DNA of 64,000 nucleotides, taken from NCBI GenBank assembly GCA_041484665.1, contig JBGPIA010000008.1, forward strand, positions 120,701-184,700, given 5' to 3'. Under the pieces are notes generated by a model that made no database searches, was not told the DNA's origin, and was given only the letters and a program-made list of their open reading frames with translations. A program made the position numbers and the translations under genes. The stretch comes from Candidatus Krumholzibacteriia bacterium (GTDB taxonomy: Bacteria; Krumholzibacteriota; Krumholzibacteriia; JAJRXK01). Within the stretch, counting starts at the first letter, position 1, and each line of letters begins with the position of its first letter. Of the stretch, positions 7,767 through 28,385 are shown piece by piece.

Positions 7767-8937
7767 GGGCCGCCGCCTCCTGCAGACGCAGATTCGGGTC
7801 GTTGACCGGCAGCAGGGGCCGCTTGCGCAGCTCGTGGACGAACGCCGCGACCCACAGTCCGCCCATGGCCGCCGGCACAACGAAATCCAGCCAATGCAGC
7901 GTGTGGACCCCCAGGGCGGGCGCGGCGTGCCAGAACAGGTCGACCCAGCGCATGACGAGCACCAGCGCCGCCACCATGGACAGTCGCCGCGCGTCGCGCT
8001 TGACGGCGTGCGGCAGCAGCAACAGGAACGGCACCGCGAAGTTGAAGAGGATCAGGATGCGCGCCACGGCCTGGTAGACGCCGTGGGTACGCTCCATGTA
8101 CCAGGTGATCTCCTCGGGGATGTTGCCCGACCAGATGATGATGAATTGCGACAGGTTGAAATACCCCCACAGCATCAGGAAGGCCAGCATGAGATTGCCG
8201 TAGTCGTGGAAGTGCTGTGGCCGCAGGACGTCGCGCAGGGGCCCATGCTCGGCGAGCAGACGGGCGACCACGATCGCGAACGCAATCGCGGTCAGGGCCT
8301 GGGCGCCGATGAAGTAGATGCCGTAGATGCTGGAGAACCACCGGTCGTTCAGTGACATCAGCCAATCGACGGAGGCCAGCGTGGCCAGCAGGCAGAACAG
8401 CAGGATGCCCGGCCCACTGACCCGCTGCATGCGCCGCGCGAAGTAGGCGCCGTCGCCACCGTCCTGCCGGCGTGACAGCCGGTTGAGCAGCAGGGCCAGG
8501 CCTCCCCAGAGGGCGAAGTAGAGCGCGGCGCGGACCAGGAAGAATGGTCCGTTCAGCCATGGCGCCCGGTGCGCAAGCAGCGCGTCCTGCGCCACCTTGG
8601 CCGGGTCGGCCCACGGGTAGACCCGCCGCAGCCCCAGGGCCAGCGGCACGAACAGCACGACCATGAGTGGGAGCGTGCGCGTGGCAGCCTCGAGGATGCG
8701 CCGGATCATCATCCCCCATCCACCGCCGGTCACATGGTGCAGCATGAGCAGCGCGAGCGCTCCCAGCGGGATCGCCACCCAGAACAGGAACGAGACGAGG
8801 TAGGCGCCCACGAAACGCCCCGGATCCTGCCAGAGCCCCACGAGCGACAGGGCGGACGCCACGCCGCCGATGAGCAGCGCCCGCGCGCGCACGCGCTGCA
8901 GCCCGGCGGGGGGGGCAAAACTCTCGAGACGGCTCAC
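7759..8937 (-). CDS. actF: Alternative complex III subunit ActF
   Basis: Polytopic; DWLMSL..WFSSIYG, HFHDYGNLM, SQFIIIWSGNIPEE; operon position. Confidence 0.9.
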   Translation of the reverse strand: MSRLESFAPPAGLQRVRARALLIGGVASALSLVGLWQDPGRFVGAYLVSFLFWVAIPLGALALLMLHHVTGGGWGMMIRRILEAATRTLPLMVVLFVPLALGLRRVYPWADPAKVAQDALLAHRAPWLNGPFFLVRAALYFALWGGLALLLNRLSRRQDGGDGAYFARRMQRVSGPGILLFCLLATLASVDWLMSLNDRWFSSIYGIYFIGAQALTAIAFAIVVARLLAEHGPLRDVLRPQHFHDYGNLMLAFLMLWGYFNLSQFIIIWSGNIPEEITWYMERTHGVYQAVARILILFNFAVPFLLLLPHAVKRDARRLSMVAALVLVMRWVDLFWHAAPALGVHTLHWLDFVVPAAMGGLWVAAFVHELRKRPLLPVNDPNLRLQEAAAHG

Positions 8938-8938
8938 G

Positions 8939-9577
8939 TCAGTGCTCCCCGGGCGGGTGCCCGCCCGCCGACGGCGCTGCGGCCGGCGCGCCGTCCGCGG
9001 CGATCGCCTGCTCGATCCGCGCGCGCTGGGACTGCGGCAGCAGACCCAGCTCCACGTGCTGGCTGAGCTGCAGCACGCGCAGGTACGCCACGATCGCCCA
9101 GCGGTCCTGCGGATGCACCTGGCTGGCGTAACCGGACATCTCGCCGAAGCCGTTGGTGATGACGTCGAAGATGTAGCCGGGGCGCGCTCCGCGCAGCCGG
9201 TCGATGTGGAAGGACGGCGGCTGCTTGAACCCGCGACGCACGATCATGCCGCGGCCGCCCCCGGTACGGTCGTGGCACGGCGAGCAAAAGATCTCGTAGC
9301 GTTCCCGCCCGCGCGCGAGCAGCTCGGCGGTCGCGGGCACGGGCAGCGTCGTGGTGAACTTGCCGTCGTTGCCAAGGCCCGCGTAGAGAGTCCGGTCTTC
9401 ACGCAGGAAGCCGCGGGGAACGGTCCCCGGGGGCAGCGGCCGCGCCGACGCTCCGTCCGCATAGAAATCGCTCGACGAATACGCCTTGTGCTTGGGCTGG
9501 TCCTTCATGTCGCGCGTGCAGCCCACCAACGCCAGCAGCCCCCCGACCAGCACGACCGCCGCCCGCTCAGTCCTCAA
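8939..9577 (-). CDS. actE: Alternative complex III monoheme cytochrome c lipoprotein ActE
   Basis: Lipobox LLALVGC, DMKDQPK, CSPCH, DRWAIVAY; TTG start at 9577 with GGAGG. Confidence 0.9.
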   Translation of the reverse strand: MRTERAAVVLVGGLLALVGCTRDMKDQPKHKAYSSSDFYADGASARPLPPGTVPRGFLREDRTLYAGLGNDGKFTTTLPVPATAELLARGRERYEIFCSPCHDRTGGGRGMIVRRGFKQPPSFHIDRLRGARPGYIFDVITNGFGEMSGYASQVHPQDRWAIVAYLRVLQLSQHVELGLLPQSQRARIEQAIAADGAPAAAPSAGGHPPGEH

Positions 9578-10124
9578 CGTCGGACACCTCCATCGCAGCG
9601 AGCCCCAGCAGCTGCTCGCGGGTGCCGGCGCGATCGAAGCGTGGGTCGCACGCGTCGACGAACAGGAAGTAGCTGTCGCGCGACGCCAGGGCGAAGCGGG
9701 GCACGTTGAAGAGCGGGTGGTGCGGCCGGGGCAGCCCGTTGAGCGCCAGCATCCCCAGCACGGCCGCAAAGGCCGCGAACAGGATCGTCGTCTCGAAGGT
9801 CACCACGATGAAGGAGGGCCAGCTGTCGTACGGGCGGCCGCCGATGTTCATCGGGTAGGCCTTCACCGCGGTCCAGTACTGCAGGGTGAATCCGCAGATT
9901 GCGCCCACCACCCCACCCCCAAACACGAGCCAGGGCAGGCGCGAGTGGTGCGACTCCACGATTTGGGAGAGCTCCTCCACTGGGTAGGGTGTGAAGGCGT
10001 CGAAGCGGCGGAACCCCGCGCCGCGCACCGCGGACGCGGCGCTCACCAGCTCCGCCTCCGTGCGGAACTCCGCCAGCAGCCCCACGAAGCGCGCGGGCCC
10101 GCTCTGACCCGTCGCGGCGGTCAC
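9567..10124 (-). CDS. actD: Alternative complex III subunit ActD (DUF3341)
   Basis: LLAEF, DAFTPYPVE, YPMNIGGRP..SWPSFIVVTFE, NGLPRPHHPLF; GTG overlaps the actC stop. Confidence 0.92.
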   Translation of the reverse strand: MTAATGQSGPARFVGLLAEFRTEAELVSAASAVRGAGFRRFDAFTPYPVEELSQIVESHHSRLPWLVFGGGVVGAICGFTLQYWTAVKAYPMNIGGRPYDSWPSFIVVTFETTILFAAFAAVLGMLALNGLPRPHHPLFNVPRFALASRDSYFLFVDACDPRFDRAGTREQLLGLAAMEVSDVED

Positions 10125-11527
10125 CGCGGTTCCTCCGGCGGCTTGGAGGCGGGCAGGATCATGCGCATCTCGAAGATGGAGATCATGGGCAAGAACCGGA
10201 TGAACAGGAACATCAGGGAGAGGAACAGGCCGATCGTCCCGAAGAAGGTCATGAAGTCGAAGCGCGTGGGATGGTACATGCCCCACGACGACGGCAGGAA
10301 GTCGCGGTGGAGGCTGGTGACGATGATCACGAAGCGCTCCAGCCACATTCCGACGTTCACGAACATGGCGATGATGAACAACGCCGTGACGGAATTGCGC
10401 ACGCGCCGCGACCAGAGCAGCTGAACCACCAGCACGTTGCACAGGATCAGCGCGTACCACGTATAGCGGTACGGGCCGGTGACGCGGTTGAGGATCATGA
10501 ACCGCTCGTAGCGGTTTCCGCTGTACCACGCCATGAAGATCTCGACGGCGTAGCCATAGGCCACGATCAGGCCGGTGGCCAGCATCACCTTGGCCATGTT
10601 CTGCAGGTGGCGCATGGTGATGAAATCCTGCAGCCCGAACAACACGCGCAGCGGAACGGACAGGGTGATTACCATGGCGAATCCGGCGAAGATGGCCCCG
10701 GCGACGAAGTAGGGCGGGAAGATCGTGGCATGCCAGCCGGGGACTTGGGCTGCGGCGAAATCGAAGCTCACCACCGTGTGCACCGAGACCACCAGTGGCG
10801 TGGCCAGCCCCGCCAGCATCAGCGACGCCATCTCGTAGTTGTGCCAGTGGCGCGCCGAGCCCCGCCAGCCCATGGCCAAGAAGCCGTACAGCTTCTGCGC
10901 GAGGAGGCTCTGGGCGCGGTCGCGCAGCGTGGCCAGATCGGGGATCAGCCCCACGAACCAGAACAGGAGCGACACCAGCGCGTACGTCGAGACTGCGAAT
11001 ACGTCCCACATGAGCGGGCTGCGGAACTGCGGCCACAGCCCGAAGGTGTTGGGGATGGGCAACAGGTAGTAGAAGCGCCATGCCCGCCCCATGTGGATGA
11101 GCGGGAAGAGCCCCGCGCACGCCACTGCGAACAGCGTCATGGCCTCGGCAAAACGATTGATGGAGTTGCGCCACGGCTGACGCAGCAGCAGCAGGATCGC
11201 CGAAATCAAGGTGCCCGCGTGCCCGATCCCGATCCACCACACGAAGTTGATGATGTCGAACGCCCAGCCCACCGGGATGTTGTTCCCCCAGATCCCGATG
11301 CCCTTGGCGAACAGCATGGTCAGCGAGTAGAGCAGCATCATCAGGATGGCGAACGATCCGCCGAACGCGGCGTACCACCACTTCGGCGTCCCGGTCAGGA
11401 CCACCGCCGAGATCTTGTCGGTGACCGTGGCCGCGGTGTGCCCCGGCGCCATCAATGGAGGCCGAGTCGGCGGGGCGGGACGGGCTGGGTTGGGCCGGGC
11501 TGGGCCGGGAGCCGGGATCTCCGCCAC
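10121..11527 (-). CDS. actC: Alternative complex III subunit ActC (NrfD/PsrC family)
   Basis: NFVWWIGIGHAGTLISA, SPLMWDVFAV, SVHTVVSFDFA, PPYFVAGAI, GMWLERF. Confidence 0.95.
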   Translation of the reverse strand: MAEIPAPGPARPNPARPAPPTRPPLMAPGHTAATVTDKISAVVLTGTPKWWYAAFGGSFAILMMLLYSLTMLFAKGIGIWGNNIPVGWAFDIINFVWWIGIGHAGTLISAILLLLRQPWRNSINRFAEAMTLFAVACAGLFPLIHMGRAWRFYYLLPIPNTFGLWPQFRSPLMWDVFAVSTYALVSLLFWFVGLIPDLATLRDRAQSLLAQKLYGFLAMGWRGSARHWHNYEMASLMLAGLATPLVVSVHTVVSFDFAAAQVPGWHATIFPPYFVAGAIFAGFAMVITLSVPLRVLFGLQDFITMRHLQNMAKVMLATGLIVAYGYAVEIFMAWYSGNRYERFMILNRVTGPYRYTWYALILCNVLVVQLLWSRRVRNSVTALFIIAMFVNVGMWLERFVIIVTSLHRDFLPSSWGMYHPTRFDFMTFFGTIGLFLSLMFLFIRFLPMISIFEMRMILPASKPPEEPR

Positions 11528-14500
11528 TAGCCTCCCTCCAGCTCGGGGTTGGGATTGCGCAGCTTCGCCAGGTAGGTCGTCCGCGGCCGCGTGCCCAACT
11601 CGGTCAGCAGCCCGTAGTTGAGCGGCGTGGCCTTCCAGCGCGTGACCTCCGACTGCGTGTCGTTGATATCTCCGAAGACGATGGCCTGCGTCGGGCACGC
11701 CTGCTGACAGGCGGTCACGATCTCGCCGTCCTGGATCGGGCGGCCTTGCGTCTTGGCGTTGATGCGCGCGACGTTGATGCGCTGCACGCAGTAGGTGCAC
11801 TTCTCCATGATGCCGCGCATGCGCACGGTCACGTCGGGGTTGCGCTGCATCTTGAGCGTCTCGCTGCGGCGGTCGTTGTACTCCAGGAAGTTGAAACGGC
11901 GGACCTTGTAGGGGCAGTTGTTGCTGCAGTACCGCGTCCCAACGCAGCGGTTGTAGGTCATATCGTTGAGCCCCTCGGCGCTGTGCGACGTGGCGGCGAC
12001 GGGGCAGACCGGCTCGCAGGGCGCCTGCTCGCAGTGCATGCACATCACGGGCTGGTGCAGCGCCGAGGCCTCGTCCAGGCCGCCCTCGAAATAGCGGTCG
12101 ATGCGGATCCAGTGCATCTCGCGCCCCTTGTGCACCTGCTCCTTGCCCACGATCGGGATGTTGTTCTCGGCCTGGCAGGCCACCACGCAGGCATTGCAGC
12201 CGATGCAGGCCGTGAGGTCGATGGCCAGCCCCCAGGCGTGGCCCTCGTACTTGAAGCCCGGGTACAAGGAGAGGTTCTCCTGGGCCCGGTCGGCGTCACG
12301 GGCGAAGTCGGGGTTGGACTGGTACTGGGCGAGCGTCCCGACGCGCACCAGCTCGCGCCCCTCCATGCTGTGGTGCTCCTGCGTGCAGGCCAGAGGATAG
12401 CGGCGCCCCAGCGGCGTCACGGCGATCCCCGCGGCGATCCACGGGGCCCCGGCAGTGCGCAGCGCATACGCGTTGAAGCCGCAGCCGTTGCCCACCCGCC
12501 CGGCGCGGGTGCGCCCGTAGCCCAGGTGGAGCGTGATGGCGCCATCGGCTTGCCCGGGCAGCACCCAGACGGCCACGGCCAGCCGGCGCTCGCCGCTGCG
12601 CAGCTCCACCAGGTCCTCGTTGGCGACGCCCAGCCGCTGCGCGGTCGCGGGGCTCAGCAGCGCCGCGTTGTCCCAGGTGAGCTTGGTCAGAGGCTTGGGG
12701 CACTCCTGCAGCCACCCGTTGTTCGCGTGGCGTCCGTCGTGGACAGTGGGATCGGGCCGGAAGATCAGCGCCAGGCCCGCACCCAGCGCCGCAGAGTCCG
12801 AGAGCCTTGCTACGGCCTGCGCGATCCCGGCCGACTGCACCGCCGCGGCGCGGGGCAGAAGCGCCGTCCCGGCGAGCACGCCATCGTGGACTGCCTTGCG
12901 CCAGAACGACTCGAAGTCGGCCGTGGCTCGCGGCTGTGCCCGCCAGTGCTCGCGCACCAGGTCATAGTCCGTCGCATCCGGGCGCTCCAGCAGACAAGCG
13001 AGGACGCCGTGCGCGGAGCGGCCGTCGTAGAGCGGCTCGATCAGCGGCTGCACGATCGTGACCGTGCCGTCGAAGGCCCGCGCGTCGCTCCAGCTCTCCA
13101 GCGCGTGCGTCTCGGGCAGGTGCCAGTGGCAGTAGTCGGACGTCTCGTTCTGGTGGAGCCCCAGGTGCACGCGCAGCGGGACCTTCTGCATCGCCGTGGT
13201 GAAGTCCAGATCGACGGGCGCGTCGTACACGGGGTTGCCCCCCAGCACCACCAGCAGGTCGATCTTTCCCCCCGCCATCTCCGCCACGAGACGTTGTAGG
13301 GAGTCCAGCTGGTCCTCGGGCTGGGCCTCGACCGCATCGGTGAGCAGCACCGTGGCGCCCAGATTGCCCAGCGCCGCGTTCATGGCGTGGGCCAGCGCGT
13401 GCAGCTCTGGCGGCGCATGCTCGCCGGCCACCACCACGCTGGCGCCGCGATGGGCCGCCAGATCGCGGGCGATCACGGCGGCCTTGGCCGACAGCGGCGG
13501 CGGCAGATCGGGCGGCGCAGCGGCGCCTGCCACCCCCAGCTGGGCGGCCAGCGCCAGGACGAAGCCGTCCAGCTGGGCGGGCGCGAGCGCGAGCCGATGG
13601 TCGGCCACCGTGCCCGAGCTGGTGGGCGTGCTCTCGACGCAGTAGAGGCGGCTCATCGCAGCGCCAGCGACCCGCGCGCGCCGCGTCGACATGAAGTCCC
13701 GCGCGTAGCGCACGGCGGCCGGTCCCTCACACATGAAGTCCGCGTCGAGGGCGACCACCACGCGGGCCCGGGTGAAGTCGTAGCGCGCGTCGGTCCAGTC
13801 GCCAAACGCCATTCTGGCGCCCACGCGCGCGCCGTGACGGCCGGCCGGCTCGTACTGGTGCCAGCGCGCCTTCGGATAGCGCGCGAGCAGCTCGCGGATT
13901 TGCGCCGCCAAGGTCGGCGAGGTGATGGTGGTGGTCAGCAGGCGCAGACCGGCGCCCTGCAGCCCCTTCTGTGCGGTCAGGGCGCCCGCAAGCTCGGCCA
14001 GGAACGTCGTCCACGAGCGGATCTCGCCGAGGGAGGTGGGCGTCTTTGAGCGATCGGGATCGTAGAGCGTCAGCACCGACGCCTGCGCGAACAGGTCGGT
14101 CGAGCCCAGGCTCGCCGGATGATCGGGATTGCCCTCGACCTTGGTGGGCCGCCCTAGGTGGCTCTCCACGAGCACGCCCATCGCGTAGCCGCCGGCCGGT
14201 ACCGCGGTGGCGAAGTAGAGCGGCTTGCCGGGGATGATCTCCTCGGGCTGCTTGACGTAGGGAACGATCTTCTCCAGCGGCTGGCGCGCGCAGGCCGCGA
14301 GCCCGGCCAGCGCGAACGAGGCACCCATCAACTGCAGGAAGCGCCGCCGCGAGAAATCCGCCTCCATGCCGACTGGCAACAGCGACGGGAACTCGCGCTG
14401 AACCAGCTCCTGGAACTGCTCGGTCTGCGCCAGCTCGTCGAGGCTGCGCCAGTAGGCAGGGCCCTGTTGCGCCGCCAGACGCTCGCGCACGGCGGACAGA

Positions 14501-14685
14501 TCGAGGCGGCGCGGCGCATCGGTGTCGGCGGGCAGGCACGTCGGCGGACCGGTCGGGGGGCCGGTCGGCGGACTGGCCGGGGCGCCGGTCGGCAGGCCGG
14601 CGGACCCGCTACCGGCCGGGCTCTCGGGCGGGCGCAGCGGGTCGTGCTGATGATGCTGCAGTGCGGCCTCGCCGAGCGGCTCCAC
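11527..14685 (-). CDS. actB: Alternative complex III subunit ActB (molybdopterin-oxidoreductase-like + Fe-S fusion)
   Basis: YWRSLDE, Tat motif [17 protein letters not shown]-terminal [37 protein letters not shown]. Confidence 0.95.
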
Positions 14686-14694
14686 GGCGTCCTC

Positions 14695-15345
14695 CTAGCG
14701 GTGGCAGGTCGAGCAGTAGGTGAGGCTCTGGATCTGGTACTCCTGCACCAACTCGCGCCCCAACTCCTCCTGCGCCCGCGGGGGCTGCCAGCCCATGGTG
14801 AAGATCTGCGAGCGCGGCCGGACGTAACGCTCGGGATGACGGTGGCAGTCGACACACCACTCCATCTGCAGCGAGCTCGCCTGCTGCATGAGGGGCATCT
14901 TGTCCACGCGGCCGTGGCACGTCTCGCAACCGATCCCCTTGGCAACGTGGATACTGTGGTTGAAGTAGACGAAGGCCGGCAGATCGTGAACGCGCGTCCA
15001 GCGGATCGGGAGGTTTGCGCGCAGGCTCTGGCGCACCGGCTCCAGCATCGGACTGTCGGACCAGATCTGCTTGTGGCAGTTCATGCAGGTCGCCGTAGGC
15101 GGGATCCCCGCGAAACTCGACTCCTCGACCGAGGTGTGGCAGTAGCGGCAGTCGATTCCCAGGCCGGCCGTGTGGTGGTCGTGGCTGAAGGGCACGGGTT
15201 GCTGCAGGATGACGGTGCGGCCGGTCGCATAGGACGACCGGCTCAGCTGGGCGAACACCCAAGCGACCGCGGCAAGGACGAACACAGCACCATAGATGGT
15301 GAACCGCGAGATCGCGTTGGTACTGCGATGGAAGATCTGGGCCAT
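14695..15345 (-). CDS. actA: Alternative complex III pentaheme cytochrome c ActA
   Basis: N-terminal TM and five CxxCH motifs (CRYCH, CMNCH, CETCH, CVDCH, CSTCH). Confidence 0.95.
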   Translation of the reverse strand: MAQIFHRSTNAISRFTIYGAVFVLAAVAWVFAQLSRSSYATGRTVILQQPVPFSHDHHTAGLGIDCRYCHTSVEESSFAGIPPTATCMNCHKQIWSDSPMLEPVRQSLRANLPIRWTRVHDLPAFVYFNHSIHVAKGIGCETCHGRVDKMPLMQQASSLQMEWCVDCHRHPERYVRPRSQIFTMGWQPPRAQEELGRELVQEYQIQSLTYCSTCHR

Positions 15346-15486
15346 CAGGGGTCGCTGCTTCGACGGGCCCTACGTGGCAGGTTGGGCGGCCGGCCCTGCG
15401 GGGCGCGTTCGGTTCGAGCAGTGCCACGCACCAGAAAGCCGGGCACTCCGGAGGGCGCGGCCGGTGCGCCCGTTCGACGGCCGCAC

Positions 15487-15515
15487 CTTGTATCACGCCC
15501 TGCCTGCCGGGTCAA
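15487..15515 (-). promoter_or_regulatory. Putative sigma70 promoter of the act-cox operon
   Basis: TTGACC-17 nt-TACAAG with TGn extension, ~140 nt upstream of actA. Confidence 0.55.
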
Positions 15516-15528
15516 CCCCCTCGCCTCG

Positions 15529-16038
15529 TCACTGGCCGCGGTCGACGTCCTGCTTGCTGTAGAACCCCAGCTCGGATGCCGTCAGCAGCTTGGTCAGGAG
15601 CGCCACCTGCCCCACGTGGTAGGAGAAATGCTCGACCACGTGCACGAGCATCGCCAGGCCGGTCTCGCTGAAGGCCTGGATGCGCCGCCGCTGGAGGAGC
15701 GAGCCGGGATCCAGGCGCACCAGGGCGGTCTCCACCGCACGGGAGGTGGTGTTGAGCTGGGCGATCAGGTCCGCCTTGCTAAGCTCGCCGCGAGCGTCGA
15801 ATTCGGCCTGACGCTGGCGCTGGTCGGGCTCCCCGCCCAACCCGTGCGCGATCCACTGACGGGCGTTGCCGCAGACGTGCAGCACGAGATTGCCCACGGC
15901 GTTGGAGGCCTCGTTGGGGCGCCACCAGACCTGCTCCTCGGTGAGCAGCTCCAGGCAGCGGCGCAGCCGTGGGATCGACTCGTCGAGCAAACGGCGGCGC
16001 GACTCCTGGACCAACGCGCGGGCAACGTCGCCGTCCAT
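15529..16038 (-). CDS. DinB/DUF1572-like four-helix protein
   Basis: WWRPNEASNAVGNLVLHVCGN, R..EF, HVVEHFSYHVGQ; ATG overlaps the upstream stop. Confidence 0.85.
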   Translation of the reverse strand: MDGDVARALVQESRRRLLDESIPRLRRCLELLTEEQVWWRPNEASNAVGNLVLHVCGNARQWIAHGLGGEPDQRQRQAEFDARGELSKADLIAQLNTTSRAVETALVRLDPGSLLQRRRIQAFSETGLAMLVHVVEHFSYHVGQVALLTKLLTASELGFYSKQDVDRGQ

Positions 16039-17963
16039 CAGCGCCCCGTCCGCGCGACGACGCGCTTGCCCAGGCTCGCCTGGAACTCGATCTGGAGGAA
16101 ATCGATGGTCACGCCCGCGCTGCGGTTGCCCAGCGGGAGCGCATCCACGGTGAACTGGTGGTCGCCATACCAGCTCCCGCTGGTGTAGAGGGCGTCGCTG
16201 TAGTAGGGCAGGTTGGCGCTGGGCGCCTGCAGCGGGGTCGAGGCGTTGAGCTGCCCGTCGAGCGTCCACTGGATCCCTTCGCCGGCGGCGGGCCCCGTCG
16301 AGCCCGGGCTCCAGCGGACAACACCGCTGCTGAACACCGGACCTGTGGTGATCTCACCGGTGAAGGCGAGGCTGCGCTGGCTGCCGGCAGCGGAGTTCAG
16401 CGCGCCCCAGTCCAGGTCGAGGGGGCTGTCGTCCTGCGCGCCGAAGGTGACGCGTTCGTTTCCGACCCGCACCGCGATCCAGTCGAACTGCACGCTTCCG
16501 GAGAACCCGTCGAAGGCAATGGTGAACAGCCGGTCGGTGTCGATGGCACGCACGGGCAGGTCAAACGTGTCCAGCGTCCAGGTCGTTGGATCCGACGTCG
16601 CGCGCTGCTGGCTGGTGCCGAAGGCCAGCTGCTCGTTCTCGTAGTACACCGTGAAGCTCCATGGGCCCGTGCCGTTGCCCGTGATCCAGCGCAGCGAGAT
16701 CTGACTGCCGGCAGGGATCGTCCCGCTCAGCAGGAACTGTGGCTTGGGCAGGACCGCGACCACTGCGTTGGCGGACACCCCGAGGTTGGCGTCGCCGCCG
16801 TTATTGTTCTGCTGTCCGATCTGCAGGCGGGTCAACGAGAGTGGCGCGCGGCGCGTGAGGCGCGTCTCGCTCGCGGCGATCTCGGCTCCGCGTGAAACCT
16901 CCGCCCGGATGGTGTTCACGCCCAGGTCGAGGGGGACTCCGACGTATCCGAAGGCTGAACCGTCCAGCCAGCCCGGCCCGACCGGCTTGCCGTTGACCAG
17001 GACGACCACGCTATCGGCTTGCGAGTCGTTGATCGTCCCGCCGAGATCCACCGCGCTGCGCGTCGTCACGACGCCTTGGGGCGGCTGGTCGATCGTGATC
17101 ACCAGCGGCGCTTTGCGCACCACGATGACGGTGTCCGCGTTGCTGCCGGACAGCGGTGCTGGCCGGGTGGCCGCCACGATGATGGTGTCGGGGCCGTCGT
17201 GCAACGCAACGTCCGCCGCGAACGAGCCCAGCTGCAGGGGCAAGACTGTGGAAGCAACGCCCGGGCGGAGCGAGATGGTTCCTGCCGTCAGGAAGGGGTC
17301 GTTGACCTGTCCCGTCACGTGCAGCGTGGGGCTGGTGACGTTCTGCCCGTCGGTGGGCACGGTGATCTGCATGACCAGCGGCCCCGTGCCGGGCAGGGAG
17401 TACCCGCGCGGCGGAGCGACCCGCAGCGTCACGGTGCCCTCCACTCCTGGCTGCGCGAATCCCGGAGCGATCCCGATCCACGACACGGCCGTGCTGTCGA
17501 GGAATGCGATCGCTACCAGATTCCAGCCGATGGCAGCCGCGAGCACGCCGTCGGCCACCTGTCCATCGAAGTGCAGCTCGCTTTCGGCGACGATGGGGAA
17601 GCGCGCGCCCAGCAGGGCGCGCCACGACGGCCACGAGAGCACGGGCGGTTGGTACGACTGGATCAGCGACTGGTACGGGGCCGAGACCGGGATTCCGCCC
17701 ACGATGGGGATCCCCGAAGCGTCGAGCACCAGGGCCATCGCGCGGCTGATCGCCCGGCTGGGGCTCGCCCCGGGCAATCCCGGGCGCGCCGCCTGCTGCG
17801 CGCTGTCATCGAACAGAACACGCAGCTCCAACCGCGCGGGGCGGGTGGCGTCGTCGCTCGCGCAGCCGGGCGGCAGCGCGAGCGCCAGCGCGATGAGCAG
17901 AACGCTTCGCACAGCGGCCGCACACAAAGCCGACAGCCGCCGGCGGCACGCCCATCGGGCCAT
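16038..17963 (-). CDS. Putative lipoprotein with tandem Ig-like (glucodextranase B-like) domains
   Basis: Signal ending LALALPPGC; two 'ITxPxxG.VT....V/L.G...D' / 'L..G.N/DTI' Ig-like repeats; beta-rich C-terminus; AGGAGG before ATG 17963. Confidence 0.6.
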   Translation of the reverse strand: MARWACRRRLSALCAAAVRSVLLIALALALPPGCASDDATRPARLELRVLFDDSAQQAARPGLPGASPSRAISRAMALVLDASGIPIVGGIPVSAPYQSLIQSYQPPVLSWPSWRALLGARFPIVAESELHFDGQVADGVLAAAIGWNLVAIAFLDSTAVSWIGIAPGFAQPGVEGTVTLRVAPPRGYSLPGTGPLVMQITVPTDGQNVTSPTLHVTGQVNDPFLTAGTISLRPGVASTVLPLQLGSFAADVALHDGPDTIIVAATRPAPLSGSNADTVIVVRKAPLVITIDQPPQGVVTTRSAVDLGGTINDSQADSVVVLVNGKPVGPGWLDGSAFGYVGVPLDLGVNTIRAEVSRGAEIAASETRLTRRAPLSLTRLQIGQQNNNGGDANLGVSANAVVAVLPKPQFLLSGTIPAGSQISLRWITGNGTGPWSFTVYYENEQLAFGTSQQRATSDPTTWTLDTFDLPVRAIDTDRLFTIAFDGFSGSVQFDWIAVRVGNERVTFGAQDDSPLDLDWGALNSAAGSQRSLAFTGEITTGPVFSSGVVRWSPGSTGPAAGEGIQWTLDGQLNASTPLQAPSANLPYYSDALYTSGSWYGDHQFTVDALPLGNRSAGVTIDFLQIEFQASLGKRVVARTGR

Positions 17964-18186
17964 GGCCGACATCCTCCTGGGAACGCTGAGGTGAGGCTCA
18001 GTGGGGACGGATCGCCGCCCCGAGCGCAAGCATCCTCAAGGAGGGGTACCCTGGCAAGGGCGAACCTGCGGTGTGCCGGGAGACGCGCAGCGTGCTTGGG
18101 GCGAAGTGATCCCGAGCGGCGCGACGCTGCCACGACGATGCCGCGGCGAGATCGCGGCCAGATCGCGCTGGACTCGAGGAAGAGAA

Positions 18187-18216
18187 ATCGGCCGGAGGCT
18201 CTCGCCTCCGGCCGAT
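18187..18216 (-). terminator. Rho-independent terminator of the Cys-Thr repeat gene
   Basis: Perfect 13-bp stem ATCGGCCGGAGGC / GCCTCCGGCCGAT with 4-nt loop, followed by TTCTCTT on the minus strand. Confidence 0.7.
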
Positions 18217-18300
18217 CGCTTCCATCAGGGCGTGCGCCACGTCGCGCCGCGACGCGCGCGCTTCAAGCGCAGGGCAACCGGTTCGCGACCGTCGTGGTCG

Positions 18301-19692
18301 CTAGCGATCGTACCCGTGCTTGACCTCGCCCCAGCTCTTGGTCGCGTCAGGCACCGGGCAATTGACGCCCAGCGTACAACGTGGCCCGCTCGTGCAGACT
18401 GCAGAGCTCGTGCAGCCGATCGCGCTTGACGTGCAGATTGTCGCCGTCGTGCACACTCCGCCGGTGCAGTTGGCTCCTGCCGTACACCCCGGCCCGGCCG
18501 TGCACGCGAACGGAGCGGCTGTGCAGCCCGCGCCGACCGTGCAAGCGTTCGGACCCTGTGTACATGCGATGCCGAGGGTGCAACCCGCGCCCAGCGTGCA
18601 GGCCTGGGGACCCTGCGTGCAGGTGGGGCCGCCCGTGCAGCCACCGCCGAAGGTGCAGCCCGGTCCGTTCGTGCAGACGTTGCCGGCCGTGCAGCCCGCC
18701 GCGCCCGCCGTGCAGGTCGCGCCGTTCGTGCAGGCGGGTACGCCAGCCGTGCAACCCGCGCCCAGCGTGCAGGCCTGGGGACCCTGCGTGCAGGTGGGGC
18801 CGCCCGTGCAGCCAAGGCCGAAGGTGCAGGCCGGTCCGTTCGTGCAGACGTTGCCGAACGTGCAGCCCGCCGCGCCCGCCGTGCAGCCCGCGCCGTTCGT
18901 GCAGGCCGGTACGCCTGCCGTGCAGCCCGGACCGGACGTGCAGGCCGTCGGATCGAAGGTGCAGTGACCGCCGCCGGTGCAACCCGCGCCCTGGGTGCAG
19001 CCTGCCGCCCCGGCCGCGCCGGATGTGCAGAATGCGCCCCTCGTGCACGCGTCCGGACCGGAAGTGCAGCCAGGGCCCTGCGTGCAGGTCGTGCCGACCG
19101 TACACGCGTGGGGACCGAACGTGCAGTTGTCACTCGAGGTGCAGTTGGTGCAGTTGGTGCAGACCCCGGACGTGCAGCGGTCGCCTGCCGTACAGGCCGC
19201 AGGCCCCGCCGTGCAGTTCGCGCCCATCGTGCACCACGCGCCCGTGGTGCAGCTGGGGCCGTCCGTGCAGACGGGAGACTGAGTGCAGTAGACGCCCTGC
19301 GTACAGCCCGAGCCCTGCGTGCAGGTCGCTCCACCCGTGCAAAGTGACTGCGCCGTGCAGTCGGGAGTCACGGTGCAGATACTCTGCGTGCATTCCGCCC
19401 CCACAGTGCAGTCTTGCGCAAGGGTGCAGTCAGGGCCCTGCGTTTGCTCGTTTGACTTGTCGACGCCGGCCTGCGGTGGGCCGGTCAGGAACGGGTCGCC
19501 GACCTTCCAGACCTTGCCGGCCATCCCGTTGGCGGAGAGATCGATGATGTGCGTGAACAGCGGCGACGCTTCCGCGTCGGTGGCCTGCACCCGCAGACCG
19601 TGCTGGACCGCCACGTAACCGACCGCCCCCACCGCGAGCAGGAGCAGGCACAGGATCCGGGTACATCGGCCGACCTTGAACGTTGTCCTCAT
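18301..19692 (-). CDS. Secreted Cys-Thr (CTxGxx) repeat protein with C-terminal SWGxxK motif
   Basis: Basic + hydrophobic N-terminus; 58 consecutive CT-initiated units (mostly 6-7 aa) plus a final Cys; ends PDATKSWGEVKHGYDR; alternative start 19728. Confidence 0.85.
   Translation of the reverse strand: MRTTFKVGRCTRILCLLLLAVGAVGYVAVQHGLRVQATDAEASPLFTHIIDLSANGMAGKVWKVGDPFLTGPPQAGVDKSNEQTQGPDCTLAQDCTVGAECTQSICTVTPDCTAQSLCTGGATCTQGSGCTQGVYCTQSPVCTDGPSCTTGAWCTMGANCTAGPAACTAGDRCTSGVCTNCTNCTSSDNCTFGPHACTVGTTCTQGPGCTSGPDACTRGAFCTSGAAGAAGCTQGAGCTGGGHCTFDPTACTSGPGCTAGVPACTNGAGCTAGAAGCTFGNVCTNGPACTFGLGCTGGPTCTQGPQACTLGAGCTAGVPACTNGATCTAGAAGCTAGNVCTNGPGCTFGGGCTGGPTCTQGPQACTLGAGCTLGIACTQGPNACTVGAGCTAAPFACTAGPGCTAGANCTGGVCTTATICTSSAIGCTSSAVCTSGPRCTLGVNCPVPDATKSWGEVKHGYDR
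18583..18924 (-). repeat. 171-bp tandem duplication (2 x 57 aa, nine CT units each) inside the Cys-Thr gene
   Basis: CTAGVPA-CTNGAx-CTAGAAG-CTxGNV-CTNGPx-CTFGxG-CTGGPT-CTQGPQA-CTLGAG occurs twice (18754-18924, 18583-18753). Confidence 0.9.
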
Positions 19693-19825: not shown

Positions 19826-19839
19826 TCTACGATCGTAGA
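19826..19839. promoter_or_regulatory. Perfect 14-bp palindrome in a divergent intergenic region (operator or bidirectional -10)
   Basis: TCTACGATCGTAGA is its own reverse complement and contains TACGAT on both strands. Confidence 0.5.
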
Positions 19840-22691: not shown

Positions 22692-25435
22692 CGCTGCTCT
22701 GGCTCGCCGCACTACTGGTTGCCGTGGGCTGGGTGGAGCTCTTGCCCACCGTCGGAGCGCCACGCACGTCGCTGGGCGTGGTGGAAATCGTGTGCGCTGC
22801 GGCTGCCACGGGCGTCGCGCTGCGGCGCGTGCGCGTGCGTCTGCGGGCTCGGACGCGCCTGCTGCTGATCGCGGCCGGGATCGCGGCCATCGCCGTGCTC
22901 CCCTTCCCCTATGGCCTGGGGCTGTTCCTGGTGGCCCTGGCCAGCGGGCTGCTTTGGCTGCCAGCGCCGCGGCCGCCCGCGCTGCTGCAAGGCGCGATCG
23001 CGGCGCTGGGAGGCGTCGGGCTCGCGCTGGCCGTCCTGGGAGCGCTCAGCCCCGTCTACTTCCTGGTGGCCGCCCGCGTCCACGAGCTGGGACCGCTCAC
23101 CTATCCGGTGAGCTGGGCGCTGCGGCTGCTGGCGCAGCACGCCAGCGCGGATCCACCGTTCGTGCACCTGGGGGCGGTCGGCGGAGTCGTGACCTTCGAC
23201 GTGAGCCTGGAGAAGCTGGGCGGCTACCCGCTGTTGTGCTTCGTGGCCGTCGCCGCGTTGCTGGTTTTCCTGGCCGGAGGGCGCCGCTCGTGGAGCGCGC
23301 TGTTCGCCCTGCTCGGGCTGGGAGCGATCTACGGGCTGCTGCGCCTGCTGCTGCTGTCGCTGCTGCAGCAGGGAGGCGAAATCCCCGAGATCTACTACAA
23401 CCGCGTCTGGGACTGCGGAGGGCTGGCCGTGCTCTGCGGCTTCTGCGTGCTCGCGCTCGTCGTGCGCGGGGGCGCCGTGGTGGATGCGCAGACGGTGGGT
23501 GAGCAGGGAGCGCCGGCAGCCTCGGGCGGACCGGCCGCCGCGGCGAGGCGTCCGGATCGCGAGCTCACGTTGGCGCTGTTATCGGCCGCCCTGGCGCTGG
23601 CCGTGGTCGGCGCCTACGGCTACCAGGACCCTGGCCATCCGAAGCGCGGCCGCGTCATGATCGATGAGGCCCACTCCAACTGGGAGTGGAGCACGATTGC
23701 ACTGGATACCGAGTCCTACGGTGTGCAGACGGTCTACAACTACTCGGAAATGATGCGCTACTTCGGCCATTACTACGAGGACATCACCAACTTCGACAGT
23801 CTCACGACCGACGTGCTGGCCAAGACGGACGTGCTGATCCTCAAGACCCCCACGCGTCCCTACGCGGAGGCCGAGGTCGACGCCATCGTGCGCTTCGTCG
23901 AGCAAGGCGGCGGTCTGTGGTTGGTGGGCGACCACACGAACATCTTCGGGATGAGCAGCAACCTCAATCGCGTCGCGCGGCGCTTCGGCATGCGCTACAA
24001 CTACAATGCGGTGGTTGACCTGCTGACGCGCGGCCGCCAGCTCTATCTGCACCCGCGCCTGCTGGCGCATCCCGCCGTGATCAACATGCCGCCGCTGCTG
24101 CTGGCGACCTCCTGCAGCATGCAGGCGCCACTGAGCAGCCGCGACGTGATGATCGGGCAGTCCCTGCTCGCCGATCAGCTCGACTACTCGCAGAACACGT
24201 TCTTCGGCAACTTCGCCCCCGACCCGTTCGAGCCGTTCGGCACGATCCTGCAATCGGCGGCGACGACGCGCGGGAAGGGACGCGTGCTGCTGTTCAGCGA
24301 CAGCACGGTTTTCAGCAACTTCTTCATGTTCATCCAGGGCAAGGCGGAGCTGGCGCTGGGCAGCGTGGCGTGGCTGATGCGGGAGAACCACACCACCTGG
24401 GTGCCGCCCTTCCTGGCCGCGTGCGCGTTGCTGTTGGCCATCGCGGCGGCGACGCTCGCGGCACGCTTGAACCGCCTGCGCGCGCTAACGGCCGCGCTGG
24501 GTCCGGGAGCGCTCGCGTTCATCGTGGGCGCGCTGCTGCTCACCGCCCAGACCAAGCGCGCCTACCCCCTGCCCTCGCCCCACCAGGAGCCGCCGTGGAT
24601 CGCCTTCGAGCGGGGGCACTGCTCCTACGGGCTGCCCGAGACCCATGAGATCCCCGACAACTCGGCGGAGAGCCATCAGACCTTCTACGTGTGGACGGGG
24701 CGCGTAGGCTACATGCCGTTCACGGCACCGCTGGCGCAGTGCCTGCAGCGGGCGCGGATCCTCGTGCTGGTCAACCCACGCGATCCGTTCGATACAGCCA
24801 GCCGCGACGCAATCGAGCGGTTCGTGCGGGACGGGGGCCGCCTCCTGGTGTTCGACTCCCCGCATGTCGGGCAGGTGCAGATCCGCGAGCACGGTCAAGA
24901 GCGTAGCGCAACCATCGGGACGACGGCCAATGACCTGTTGCCCGCCTTTGGGATCCGCATGCTCGGGGCCGAGGTCGACTCGGTGGTGGCGATCAGCACC
25001 GCGACCAAGGACTCGGTGACCATGCTCTACCACGTGGGCGCGCTGGAGGGCGGCACACCGTTGCTGACTCGTCCCGACGGAACCCCGATCCTCGTGGTGG
25101 CCGATCACGGCCGGGGAAAGGTCGCGGCCATCTGCGCCTCGGACAGCTTCACCGACGCGGTGCTGGGCACCACGTCGCAAATCCCCTCGCCGGAGCAGCT
25201 CGCGCTCTATCGGATCGAGTTCTCGCTGCTGGACGACGTGCTGCGCCCGCCAGACGTGCCGCGCCCGGTGCGCACGCCACCGCCAGTGCGGCCGTCCTCG
25301 TCCGCGCGTACGTCGTTCGCGCCGGCTGGCGCGCCGGCTGGCGCGCCAGCCGCCACGCCCGGCACCACGCCCACCCCCGTCCCGTCCGGGCCCAACGCGC
25401 CTGCAGCGCGGATCCCCGCCCAGACACCACGGTAG
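22688..25435 (+). CDS. Polytopic membrane protein with exosortase-like TM segment and two GATase1-like domains, paralog B
   Basis: GTGA overlap with paralog A; RVMIDEAHSNWE..TDVLILKTP..AIVRFVEQGGGLWLVGDHT..GKGRVLLFSDST; second domain AIERFVRDGGRLLVFD..GRGKV. Confidence 0.7.
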   Translation: MTLLWLAALLVAVGWVELLPTVGAPRTSLGVVEIVCAAAATGVALRRVRVRLRARTRLLLIAAGIAAIAVLPFPYGLGLFLVALASGLLWLPAPRPPALLQGAIAALGGVGLALAVLGALSPVYFLVAARVHELGPLTYPVSWALRLLAQHASADPPFVHLGAVGGVVTFDVSLEKLGGYPLLCFVAVAALLVFLAGGRRSWSALFALLGLGAIYGLLRLLLLSLLQQGGEIPEIYYNRVWDCGGLAVLCGFCVLALVVRGGAVVDAQTVGEQGAPAASGGPAAAARRPDRELTLALLSAALALAVVGAYGYQDPGHPKRGRVMIDEAHSNWEWSTIALDTESYGVQTVYNYSEMMRYFGHYYEDITNFDSLTTDVLAKTDVLILKTPTRPYAEAEVDAIVRFVEQGGGLWLVGDHTNIFGMSSNLNRVARRFGMRYNYNAVVDLLTRGRQLYLHPRLLAHPAVINMPPLLLATSCSMQAPLSSRDVMIGQSLLADQLDYSQNTFFGNFAPDPFEPFGTILQSAATTRGKGRVLLFSDSTVFSNFFMFIQGKAELALGSVAWLMRENHTTWVPPFLAACALLLAIAAATLAARLNRLRALTAALGPGALAFIVGALLLTAQTKRAYPLPSPHQEPPWIAFERGHCSYGLPETHEIPDNSAESHQTFYVWTGRVGYMPFTAPLAQCLQRARILVLVNPRDPFDTASRDAIERFVRDGGRLLVFDSPHVGQVQIREHGQERSATIGTTANDLLPAFGIRMLGAEVDSVVAISTATKDSVTMLYHVGALEGGTPLLTRPDGTPILVVADHGRGKVAAICASDSFTDAVLGTTSQIPSPEQLALYRIEFSLLDDVLRPPDVPRPVRTPPPVRPSSSARTSFAPAGAPAGAPAATPGTTPTPVPSGPNAPAARIPAQTPR

Positions 25436-27258
25436 GGCAGCGCGCCCTGCAGCGGCCCCGCGCCGGCAACGGCGCGCTCGATCAGCATGCGCCATGCACG
25501 GCGCGCATCGCGCAGGGCACAGGCCGCCTCGGCCGCGGTGGCGGGCAGGACCGCGATGGTGCGGCTGCGATGGTAGCAACCGTCGCCGAACGCGGCGCCC
25601 ATCGGCCAGCACAGCGCGCCCGGCGCGCAGCTCCAGTGCCGCGGTACTCCCCAGGCACGCTCGTCCTGCGGCAGGATCACGCGCAGCGCCACGTCGATCG
25701 ACGCGTCCCAGGGTGTGGCCGTGAGGCCCCGGCCGGTGGACTCCACACGCGTCCAGCGCCCGGGCGCCAGCCGCGCCTCCACCACGAAGTGCTCCTGCGT
25801 TGCCGCGTCCACGGGAATTACGGAAAGCAGCCGCGCCGGGATGCCCCGGGCGCGCAGCAGCGCTGCGAGCAGGTTGGCGTGACCGGTGCAGACGCCGAAG
25901 CCGCGCCGCAGCGTCGAGAGCGCATCCTGATTGCCCAGCGGCCGGATCGCGATCGCGCAGCGCTTGAAGGACTCGGCGGCGCGCGCGACGGTCGCCGGCG
26001 GGGCCCCCGCCGGCGCCAGCGATCGCGCCGCGGCAACGATCTCCGGCGCGCCGGACTGGATCGCGGGCGAGGGCGCGCTCCAGCAGGCGTCGTCGTCCAG
26101 CGGGAGGTCAGCCGGCAGGATCGGCGCCCCCTGCGCCAGCACGACCTGCTCCTCCCAGTACACAAAGAGCAGAGTGTCCTGCGGCTCGGTCGAGAGCTCC
26201 ACGTGCACGGAAGCGTTGCCGCGCTCCTCGAGCAGCCGGAACGAGAGGATGCGGTCCGCGGGCTGTGTGCGCAGCGCCAGCCGCAGAGGCGCTTGGTGTT
26301 GCTCGATGGGAGGAACGGCGAATCGCAGCCATGATCGGCCCGCGGACGACGCCGGGCGCAGCACGTACGCGCCCTCGGCGAGAACGATTTGCAGCCGCGC
26401 CTGGGGCGCTGACCGAATCGCCGCGCCCACCGACTCATCCGCTGCCTCGCCCGGCTCCGCCCGCGGCGCGCGCGCTACGGCGTCCGGTCCAGCGGACCGG
26501 CCGTAGGGATCGAGCCGCCAGGGCGGGCCCGCCACATCGCTCGCACGCGCGAGCTGCAGCGCGCGAAAGCTGGCCGCGCCGGAGCCGTAGAGCCCAGCGC
26601 GCACCAGCACGGTCTGTGTCCCAGCGGGGAGGACCAGCGAGCGCTCGAAACGGCGCCACGGCTGCGTGCCGCCCAGGTCGCCGGCGGCGCGTAGCGGGAA
26701 GCGCGCCAGCTCGCGATCCTGGGCGAAGCACTGCAGCACGACGTTGGCGGCGACCGCTTCAGCCGTCGCCATCCAGCCGCCCAGCAGCAGGCGATCGCCC
26801 GCGCGCACACCCTCCACCCGCTGTGTCCAGGAGCGGAGGTAGCCCTGATCCGGCCGGGCAACGACGATGCTGGCGACGCCGTCCTCGATCGCGAAGCGTG
26901 CCCGCGGCGCGCGGCGGGGCTCGGCAGCCGCCTGCGCCGGCGCCACCCGGCCCAAGTCGGCAAGCGCGCGCGTGTGCGTCGCGCCAACCGAGTCAGCGGC
27001 CGCGGGCCCCGGCGGCACGCGCTGCGAATCGGCGGGCGCGACCGCGCGCGAGCGACCCACCGCGCGCCAGGCGATGGGTTGGCCCTGCTCCAGCTGCGTG
27101 AAGTCACCGTTGCGCAGCAGGTTCTGTGGCGCGCGCGCCCACGACGCAGGGGCCGCCGCGCACGACCCGGTGCGGGATCTCCCGACGGGCGGCGCGCCAG
27201 GCGCCGCACACGACGCCACGCACGCGAGCGCCACCGCTGCAATCCGCCCAGCGCTCAC
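25207..27258 (-). CDS. Putative lipoprotein: carbohydrate-binding-like domain + transglutaminase-like domain
   Basis: AAVALACVASC signal; NLLRNGDF..GTQPWRRFE (CBM-like); GVCTGHANLLAALLRARGIPAR..H..E..W (transglutaminase core); GTG overlaps the upstream stop. Confidence 0.75.
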   Translation of the reverse strand: MSAGRIAAVALACVASCAAPGAPPVGRSRTGSCAAAPASWARAPQNLLRNGDFTQLEQGQPIAWRAVGRSRAVAPADSQRVPPGPAAADSVGATHTRALADLGRVAPAQAAAEPRRAPRARFAIEDGVASIVVARPDQGYLRSWTQRVEGVRAGDRLLLGGWMATAEAVAANVVLQCFAQDRELARFPLRAAGDLGGTQPWRRFERSLVLPAGTQTVLVRAGLYGSGAASFRALQLARASDVAGPPWRLDPYGRSAGPDAVARAPRAEPGEAADESVGAAIRSAPQARLQIVLAEGAYVLRPASSAGRSWLRFAVPPIEQHQAPLRLALRTQPADRILSFRLLEERGNASVHVELSTEPQDTLLFVYWEEQVVLAQGAPILPADLPLDDDACWSAPSPAIQSGAPEIVAAARSLAPAGAPPATVARAAESFKRCAIAIRPLGNQDALSTLRRGFGVCTGHANLLAALLRARGIPARLLSVIPVDAATQEHFVVEARLAPGRWTRVESTGRGLTATPWDASIDVALRVILPQDERAWGVPRHWSCAPGALCWPMGAAFGDGCYHRSRTIAVLPATAAEAACALRDARRAWRMLIERAVAGAGPLQGALPYRGVWAGIRAAGALGPDGTGVGVVPGVAAGAPAGAPAGANDVRADEDGRTGGGVRTGRGTSGGRSTSSSSENSIR

Positions 27259-28385
27259 GGCGTGATCCCGTGGTCCTTCAGCCACCCCTGCCACAGCGCG
27301 CGCACGGAGTCAGGGACCGCGGCCCGAGCCGCCCCGCTCCGGCGCGCCAGCGCGGACCAGGGCGCCGCGCCCACGGGCAGGCTGTCGCAGGGGCTGCGGA
27401 CGAGCAAGGGCTGCAGCCCGTCCTGCGAGGTGAGTGCGCCAGGATCGGCCTCGCAGTTGCCGTCGACCTCGATCGCCGGCGGTTTGCATGCGCCGCCCGC
27501 GGCACCGCCTTCGTTCTGCCACACGAGATTGCGGTGCAGCACCGCCGGCTTCTGCTCTCCAAGCAGGTAGACGGCGGCGCCCTTGCGGCTGCGGGCGATC
27601 ACGTTGTCCCGGATCAGCGCCGGCGAATCGTCCAGGTAGATTCCGCCGCCGCTGCTGGTGGCCGCGTTGCCGATCATCGTGTTGCCGATGATCACCGGAG
27701 TCGAGACGTGCGCCAGGACCGCCCCGCCCGACACGGCGTCGTTGTCGACGATGAGGTTGTTGTAGACGAGCGGCGCGCACCGCGCGTAGGCGGCCACGGC
27801 TCCGCCCAGGTATCCCTCGGCGCGCCGCATCACGTTGCAGGCGATCACCGCGTTGCTGCCATGGTTCATGTACACGCAGGGGCCCAGGTAGCCCAGGTGG
27901 TCCTGGATGATATTGAAAACCACGAGGGGGCTGGAGCCCTCCAGATAGATGCCGCCGCCGCCCGAGTTGGGGTGGTCCCGGCGGCCGTGCTGGAGCGTGA
28001 AGCCCTGGATGAGGGTGGAGGCGTCGAGCTGCTGGCCGAACAGCACGTAGCGATCTCCCGCCGCATCGAGGATGGTCGAGTCAGCGCCGGAGGCGCTCAT
28101 CAGCGCGACACCTGACTTGAGCGTGACCGTCTTCTCATAGCGCCCCAGTCCCACCAAAACCGTATCGCCCGCGGCAGCGGCCGCCATCGCCGTCTGGATG
28201 GTCGGTGCCGCGTTCCGCCATGTCGCAAACGGGGGAGCGCCGTGACCGTCGGGGCGCACGTGCAGCACAGCCGCCGCCGCGACACCCGCGCACAGCGACG
28301 CCGCAACGACGAGCGGGAGCAACCGGACACGCAGCACCAACGACCGGTGCCGGATCGCCGCGAGCGGGACCTGTAGACGCTTCAT
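27255..28385 (-). CDS. Secreted right-handed parallel beta-helix (pectin-lyase-fold) protein
   Basis: Signal peptide; TIQTAM..A..GDTVLV..GRY; repeated GGGIY/GGAV + N-ladder motifs. Confidence 0.8.
   Translation of the reverse strand: MKRLQVPLAAIRHRSLVLRVRLLPLVVAASLCAGVAAAAVLHVRPDGHGAPPFATWRNAAPTIQTAMAAAAAGDTVLVGLGRYEKTVTLKSGVALMSASGADSTILDAAGDRYVLFGQQLDASTLIQGFTLQHGRRDHPNSGGGGIYLEGSSPLVVFNIIQDHLGYLGPCVYMNHGSNAVIACNVMRRAEGYLGGAVAAYARCAPLVYNNLIVDNDAVSGGAVLAHVSTPVIIGNTMIGNAATSSGGGIYLDDSPALIRDNVIARSRKGAAVYLLGEQKPAVLHRNLVWQNEGGAAGGACKPPAIEVDGNCEADPGALTSQDGLQPLLVRSPCDSLPVGAAPWSALARRSGAARAAVPDSVRALWQGWLKDHGITP

Follow-up and report, generated by a model that had tools for sequence, protein, structure and literature searches.

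The described systems closest to the locus analysed here are the lanthipeptides (classes I-V), the antifreeze proteins of Tenebrio, Dendroides and Dorcus (1EZG, PF02420), the proteins with GATase-like domains of the GIFT, DUF4350, GldG, OST48 and site-1 protease kind, and the exosortases and archaeosortases (PF09721). Among the lanthipeptides, the prochlorosins are a system in which one enzyme acts on many precursors. Phosphorylation by the known class III and IV lanthipeptide enzymes uses NTPs, as stated in an excerpt of PMC8341899, and lanthipeptide synthetases act in the cytoplasm, according to a portion of PMC5686179. The beetle antifreeze proteins are described in part of PMC8038014 as a 12-residue repeat with intra-coil disulfides, archaeal DUF4350 proteins have one TM helix in the section of PMC5898192 drawn on here, and the catalytic triad of exosortase is given as Cys-Arg-His in an extract of bioRxiv 2023.06.07.544157.

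The window (the whole stretch of DNA analysed, 64,000 nucleotides from a Candidatus Krumholzibacteriia bacterium) holds on its reverse strand the gene of an exported Thr/Cys-repeat protein, P0001 (18301..19692), whose open frame and translation of 463 aa were confirmed and which is proposed here to encode the substrate of a maturation system. The gene has a GC3 of 0.84 and a ribosome-site-like run, GGGGGGTG, upstream of the ATG at 19692. The initial annotation had described an exported protein of 58 Cys-Thr (CT) steps with a final Cys, and this held: of its 61 Cys, two fall in the signal region and 59 within residues 89-445, Thr follows 58 of these 59 and Pro follows the last. Spacings of 6 (39 times) and 7 (13 times) dominate from Cys to Cys, Gly occupies Cys+3 in 45 of the 59 units, and the array contains an internal duplication of 57 aa with nine Cys per block. 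On reading of the sequence CxxCH is absent, as had been noted, and CTNCTNC is present. The signal-like N-terminus was likewise upheld (approximately residues 1-37, 19582..19692, reverse strand), with a basic start and a hydrophobic helix, modelled by AF2 at residues 8-31, in a layout shared by homologs. The 56,475 stop-to-stop frames in the host genome include no long CT array other than P0001, though one further frame has six CT and an Arg-rich look; searches of Pfam and NCBIfam with P0001 matched no family and a search of the ESM Atlas gave no usable match. Of the strong terminator attributed to the gene, the stable hairpin stood (approximately 18186-18217, -39.1 kcal/mol, z -5.8, with 0 of 200 shuffles equally stable), but the U tail is imperfect and a consensus terminator scan did not list it; the feature as a whole (18177..18217, reverse strand) is here called terminator-like. 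The intergenic region between the divergent genes, which is AT-richer, contains a perfect 14-bp palindrome (19826-19839), a possible operator that, among 228 loci searched, is present only at loci of the host genome.

The stretch of about 50 aa that had been taken for a spacer is present, but the conserved leader helix inside it was overlooked, as were the Thr that opens the array (Thr84) and a C-terminal motif of probable sorting function. The leader, SPL[FY]xHIxxLSxxGM (residues 43-57, 19522..19566, reverse strand; predicted helix 44-56), is in alignments the best-conserved part of the repeat-protein family outside the repeats. It is common to all partner proteins with an intact start, profiles built on it recover partner genes adjoining the two neighbouring genes gift1 and gift2, and it is proposed to be a recognition element. 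It need not abut the core, since a CHRD domain intervenes between leader and array in P0002/P0020 and at one further locus (L180). Another locus (L197) carries the same signal and leader in two places separated by 5.5 kb (9821-10057 and 15345-16280), one copy without a core and one with a full CT array, possibly through rearrangement or insertion. Prediction of a complex between the leader and three GIFT-domain chains scored 0.14, a value for which controls were not folded and which weighs neither way. At the other end of the protein, the motif VP...[ST]WGx[ILV]K..Y (18304..18357, reverse strand) places [ST]WGx[ILV]K within the last 18 residues; in a genome-wide count of C-termini 39 ORFs of the host end in this pattern, against 0.34 expected, and 28 of the 38 examined have a signal-like start. 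The tail is probably an export or sorting signal and looks like one that has not been described, no NCBIfam or Pfam model having matched it on P0001, although no match to the exosortase family PF09721 was found in the host genome. In homologs the same slot is taken by a TM helix with basic residues, by the WG motif or by a FlgD/T9SS-type domain.

Transcribed divergently from P0001 are two paralogs, gift1 (P0071; 20016..22691, forward strand) and gift2 (P0070; 22688..25435, forward strand). The frame of gift1 opens at 19899, with the ATG at 20016 the likelier start, and by Pfam and alignments encodes a multi-TM region and two DUF4350/GIFT domains; gift2 encodes nine TM helices, a GIFT domain, a TM hairpin and a second GIFT domain, as read from its AF2 model (pLDDT 88.9) and fold matches. 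Both GIFT domains of gift2 are predicted from loop charges to lie outside the membrane. Matches to PF14258, PF23355 and PF09822 were obtained in 48/48 and 54/54 members of the partner families, and the class I GATase-like GIFT fold was confirmed for the soluble domains of the partners: in a fold search, the soluble part of gift2 matched IFT52 with Z 22.5 (rmsd 2.5 over 209 residues), site-1 protease with Z 19.2 and OST48 with Z 18.1. In contrast to known GIFT proteins, the partners have two domains per chain, nine TM helices and many invariant polar residues, and they occur as two paralogs associated with one family of substrates. The invariant polar residues, seen among the conserved columns of both paralogs, suggest active sites; the GIFT domains carry the invariant motifs DExH, GDHTN and DSTxFSN, His132, Glu175, Lys176 and Arg219 are conserved in the TM part of gift2, and there is no CxxC among the conserved columns of either protein.

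This TM part has an exosortase-like layout of a helix, three strands and TM-TM, with an invariant Arg (Arg219, 76/76) matching that of exosortase, and both systems would pair a membrane enzyme with a short conserved substrate signal. However, in a weak alignment the column of the catalytic Cys is Lys or Arg in gift2 and no conserved His follows, which on this alignment leaves gift2 without the Cys-Arg-His triad. Comparison by hhalign gave a probability of 8.7% (E 0.004, 102 columns), falling with a narrow alignment to 2.6%, no better than shuffled controls; an Atlas score of 0.78 is a lead only, and PF09721 is not among the listed Pfam families of the 48 and 54 partner members. Furthermore, the common substrate signal is N-terminal here and the C-terminal tails vary. 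The relation between gift2 and exosortase is weak.

Between gift2 and the gene of a right-handed beta-helix protein (27255..28385, reverse strand; PF13229) lies that of an exported transglutaminase-like protein (25207-27294, reverse strand), which was rejected as a member of the module given that related loci hold no conserved counterpart. The beta-helix gene is accessory, its association with the CT gene being confined to close relatives (L013, L088, L089, L177, L193 and L200). Directly past the terminator-like hairpin of P0001 is a large exported protein with Glucodextran_B Ig-like domains (16038-18029, reverse strand), a protein that was not seen at related loci, and beyond it an ordinary-looking operon of the Alternative complex III type (7759-15345, reverse strand), with a multiheme cytochrome c, a molybdopterin/Fe-S fusion and polysulfide-reductase-like membrane subunits; two of the subunits were checked by Pfam, and the names of the others are presumptive.

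P0001 belongs to an undescribed protein family in bacteria and archaea. Protein searches with the family gave 18 and 59 matches, among which the true relatives have the signal, the leader, the CT array and an interchangeable tail. Cytoplasmic, phage-type proteins with Cys-rich CTLGDx hexapeptides (P0030, P0038 and P0042, for example), found among the 59, have neither signal peptide nor leader, are unrelated to the family and became controls, and matches in three further genomes (G115, G206 and G046) proved to be unrelated short repeats. One homolog (in G139) is flanked by the same gift pair and beta-helix gene. Within the phylum of the host, the gift pair was strongly matched in at least 14 of 208 genomes, with 11 further matches weak and GIFT-only; the partner protein accompanies the pair in 13 of these 14 and was also detected in 2 of the other 194, these two genomes being 71% and 84% complete. 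None of the nine other same-family genomes has repeat-protein or gift genes.

A scan of species genomes gave 441 relatives of gift2, and at the best 80 of these, analysed as loci, the hosts span many bacterial phyla and the Thermoplasmatota, both paralogs are present in 66 and a leader-bearing or Thr/Cys-repeat gene in 52 (including one, L119, with a leader and no in-frame Cys core), counts that are not independent, since some genomes may be in both this set and that of the phylum, and either may contain related members. Where at least 2.5 kb of flank was available, the partner gene was present at 33 of 43 gift2 loci. At five loci with gift2 only, gift1 was found elsewhere in all five genomes and a TC partner, with Thr directly before Cys, in four; in five genomes whose pair lacks a neighbouring partner, a single query found a TC-type partner in one. 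For the reverse direction a leader DNA pattern was used, because alignments of the repeat protein gave no usable metagenome pattern: of 35 metagenome loci, 16 were discarded as chance, out-of-frame or incomplete matches, and a gift gene was present at 4 of the 19 with leader and CT array, several of the others being at least 10 kb long. Neighbour clustering across the 80 loci found no other enzyme or gene broadly conserved; by clusters judged on sequence, LanB, LanC, LanM, LanKC and LanL are not conserved neighbours at these loci, and PF05147 and PF04738 were not found in the host genome, in a search alongside which no positive control was detected. In a quick tree, gift2 clusters by the register of the repeat (6 changes against 20.9 when shuffled, with two mis-cut rows, L088 and L127, on long branches), and the gift2 of P0001 groups, with support of 99, with those of Lentisphaerota and Planctomycetota that have CT partners. 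This grouping by substrate form suggests a cassette moving as one unit. No description of the three-gene module was found in the open-access literature. It is very probable that some kind of maturation system, directed by the leader and dedicated to such proteins, acts on P0001 outside the membrane.

The partner proteins at gift2 loci take the forms CT (4), TC (29, plus the coreless L119), T-x7-C (13) and short archaeal peptides (5). The last have 1-7 Cys and often occur in several copies per locus; five Thermoplasmatota loci (L129, L130, L133, L143 and L155) hold several short peptides with a signal, the SPL[FY] leader and small Cys/Thr cores, and a larger gene, GATase-like in appearance, is common to four of the five. 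At the other extreme the largest substrates carry up to approximately 119 Cys: proteins at L131 (2640-6998), L142, L163 and L106 have 1000-1450 aa, 84-119 Cys and T-x-D-P-x4-C repeats, one such protein coming from the record of an anammox bacterium. In 42 CT proteins, a set from which fragments, near-duplicates and entries with frameshifts were removed, an internal Cys is followed by Thr in 84.9% and by Ser in 10.1% of cases (n=1304), and Val is outside the ten commonest residues; in the phage-type hexapeptide controls the corresponding values are Thr 27%, Lys 19% and Val 9%. Since it is Ser and not Val that replaces Thr, the feature that counts appears to be the hydroxyl and not beta-branching.

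The ends of the arrays give the polarity of the unit. In the CT class the first Cys has a Thr 3-7 residues ahead of it in 46 of 52 proteins, compared to 1 of 16 controls, and the last Cys has no following Thr or Ser in 44 of 52; with one protein per cluster the upstream Thr is found in 16/21 (approximately 25% expected) and the last-Cys rule in 17/21. The latter alone does not discriminate in this class, because TmAFP too ends in Cys-Pro. In the TC class Thr directly precedes 712 of 808 non-last Cys and none of the 22 last Cys, and a spare Thr stands before the first Cys in 21 of the first 22 proteins (33% expected); with ten later proteins added, the spare Thr is found in 28/32 and a last Cys without preceding Thr or Ser in 27/32, one clade of four T9SS-tailed proteins, with TC at start and end, being an exception to the boundary rule. 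In the long-repeat class (T-x7-C) Thr is at -8 for 234 of 279 Cys, and the linker from Cys to the next Thr is variable. Given that a spare Thr usually opens an array and its final Cys usually has no Thr beside it, the unit runs from Thr to Cys, and the boundary and spacing data bring the three registers under one rule, by which a Thr is retained where there is a Cys one period further on. Applied to P0001, the rule yields exactly 59 units head to tail, from T84 to C445 (18358..19443, reverse strand), mostly T-x4-C or T-x5-C. Counting against a ring as the unit, Cys-Thr adjacency in the CT class is more rigid than the distance from Thr to Cys.

The initial annotation had likened the protein to a beetle antifreeze protein, and part of this likeness stands. 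The only match of the family profile to PDB sequences is TmAFP (1EZG; E 9e-7, bias 62), and the shared features are Cys every six residues, Thr after Cys, a final Cys-Pro and a small, inward-type residue at Cys+3 (Gly, Ser or Ala in 82% of 1209 six-residue units, as in TmAFP). These similarities raise the possibility that P0001 is a beta-solenoid of the TmAFP fold laddered by disulfides, which would serve as an envelope rod, with the pair as a private folding or oxidation machine; a precomputed PF02420 label on 3 of 18 homologs is consistent with it, as is an even Cys count in 13 complete WG-ended substrates against an odd count in 5, related members included. However, the 12-residue TCTxSxNCxxAx repeat and its TCT face are missing from the family, there is no two-unit (12-residue) register, similarity at lag 2 and lag 3 being alike, and by the proxy of sequence neither an even count nor a fixed register that would pair every Cys is seen. 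The Cys count is even in 26 of 52 proteins of the CT class and 16 of 32 of the TC class, long spacers keep the same parity in 57 cases and differ in 55, and the nine Cys of the duplicated P0001 block are again an odd number. A bias towards even Cys counts marks disulfide-forming hosts; the WG-tailed proteins of this host divide into 12 even and 12 odd (P0001 counted, with a crude signal cut), so it has no internal positive control for such a bias. Moreover, DsbB and VKOR were not found in the host genome (93.65% complete) or in five other hosts, in all six of which controls were detected, and the pair has no conserved CxxC, although other oxidation routes are possible. Pro and Gly are frequent at strand positions, and in relatives that share the leader and the partner genes the repeat is TC or T-x7-C, unlike that of the beetle proteins, the T-x7-C class being left uncovered. 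The AF2 model of P0001 (pLDDT 41.9, from a gappy 19-row alignment) shows no solenoid but is uninformative as to the fold. The leader and the dedicated partner genes likewise set the family apart from the beetle proteins. A disulfide solenoid is, on this evidence, decidedly unlikely. The left-handed hexapeptide beta-helix (PF00132), which has an aliphatic core position ([LIV]) every six residues, was also rejected, as S, G, A, N, Q and K predominate at the corresponding position and the phage-type hexapeptide matches behave differently.

The same resemblance to TmAFP, together with the single rank of Thr across all units, could point to a protein that truly binds ice or clathrates. Only 5 TCT occur in the 59 units of P0001, a scarcity that had been noted, Cys is preceded by Thr in 6% of units and by Gly in 19%, Ser replaces Thr freely, and close relatives are labelled bacterium HR15 and Fimbriimonadales, which are taken to be hot-spring organisms; ice or clathrate binding is poorly supported and highly improbable. 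Alternatively, the protein may be a sponge for metal or sulfur at the surface, its Cys thiolates binding soft metals and its Thr hydroxyls tuning them, with the pair loading or presenting it. Such a role would need neither a parity rule nor a Dsb pathway and would suit both the up to approximately 119 Cys per protein and the many named gift2 hosts from what are presumably mostly anaerobic groups. It is nevertheless improbable: it does not account for the fixed distance at which a Thr precedes every Cys in the three registers, genes for metal resistance or transport are not broadly conserved near the 80 loci, and in the long class Cys are sparse, at one per 13-15 residues.

A further possibility retains the leader-directed system and alters its chemistry, the pair moving a lipid-linked sugar, phosphoglycerol or acyl group onto Thr without a permanent ring, and the downstream Cys being part of the recognition site or a transient acceptor. 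The C-x4-T-C and C-x2-T-C patterns of the TC class are consensus patterns of eukaryotic O-fucosylation, only Thr or Ser occupies the position that would be modified, the GIFT domains match OST48 and glycosidase accessory domains, and transfer from a lipid donor would need no ATP. This is unlikely for several reasons: the CT class does not fit the O-fucosylation patterns, arrays open with Thr instead of a loop-closing Cys, glycosyltransferase and sugar genes are not broadly conserved near the 80 loci, and the presence of one Cys per Thr with random parity is unaccounted for.

The thioether-modified, RiPP-like protein that had been listed as an alternative fits best with the boundary rule, the leader and the partner genes, and it is tentatively suggested that the gift pair joins each Thr to a downstream Cys as methyllanthionine-like rings without Lan enzymes. 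Formation of rings is favoured by the boundary rule, the substitution of Thr by Ser only, the random parity and the absence of DsbB and VKOR; by the co-occurrence of the partners, a shared leader with variable cores, several copies per locus and the existence of short peptides in archaea; and by a gift2 tree that follows the register with no other enzyme as a conserved neighbour. As in lanthipeptides, a conserved helical leader is followed by a variable core rich in Ser/Thr and Cys, Thr precedes Cys at distances of ring size (here as a pattern of sequence), and a genome can hold several precursors, some in trans. Unlike lanthipeptides, the P0001 family has a Sec signal before the leader, up to approximately 119 units and surface-sorting tails, and the candidate enzymes are extracytoplasmic GIFT-domain membrane proteins. 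The P0001 system would probably work like a lanthipeptide system, by analogy, and lies outside the known classes because the known enzymes use NTPs and are cytoplasmic. No precedent for GIFT domains as such catalysts, or for lanthionine formation outside the cytoplasm, was found in the open-access literature.

In the proposed mechanism P0001 would be the substrate of a dedicated two-subunit membrane maturase. The protein would first be exported by Sec, after which a gift1/gift2 complex would bind the leader and link each Thr (or Ser) to the Cys 5-9 residues downstream through a beta-thioether like that of (methyl)lanthionine. For activation of the hydroxyl, a guess at this stage, a lipid-borne phospho or acyl donor would be most plausible because there is no ATP outside; it could be held by the exosortase-like TM part, where His132, Glu175, Lys176 and Arg219 are candidates for the donor site. 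Elimination and addition of the Cys would then take place in the GIFT domains, at their DExH, GDHTN and DSTxFSN motifs. Approximately 59 small rings in a chain would result, proof against reduction and resistant to proteases, and the chain may act as a stalk or scaffold of the envelope in cells that have no known pathway for making disulfides. More generally, and with the same reserve, a GIFT-domain membrane heterodimer that needs neither ATP nor Lan enzymes could form lanthionine-type thioethers outside the membrane. Its substrates would extend from short peptides of archaea to large surface proteins of more than 100 rings, and the rings would substitute for disulfides where Dsb is missing.

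If this is true, there would be a post-export route to thioether rings in proteins without any known synthetase family, and a catalytic role for GIFT domains, whose relatives in IFT52, OST48, GldG and site-1 protease are generally read as scaffolds. It could also provide leader-directed cyclisation of secreted proteins. Even with another chemistry, a three-gene module whose substrate has no family model spans bacteria and archaea; with the thioether chemistry, it would explain how extremely Cys-rich surface proteins come to be present in cells without DsbB or VKOR.
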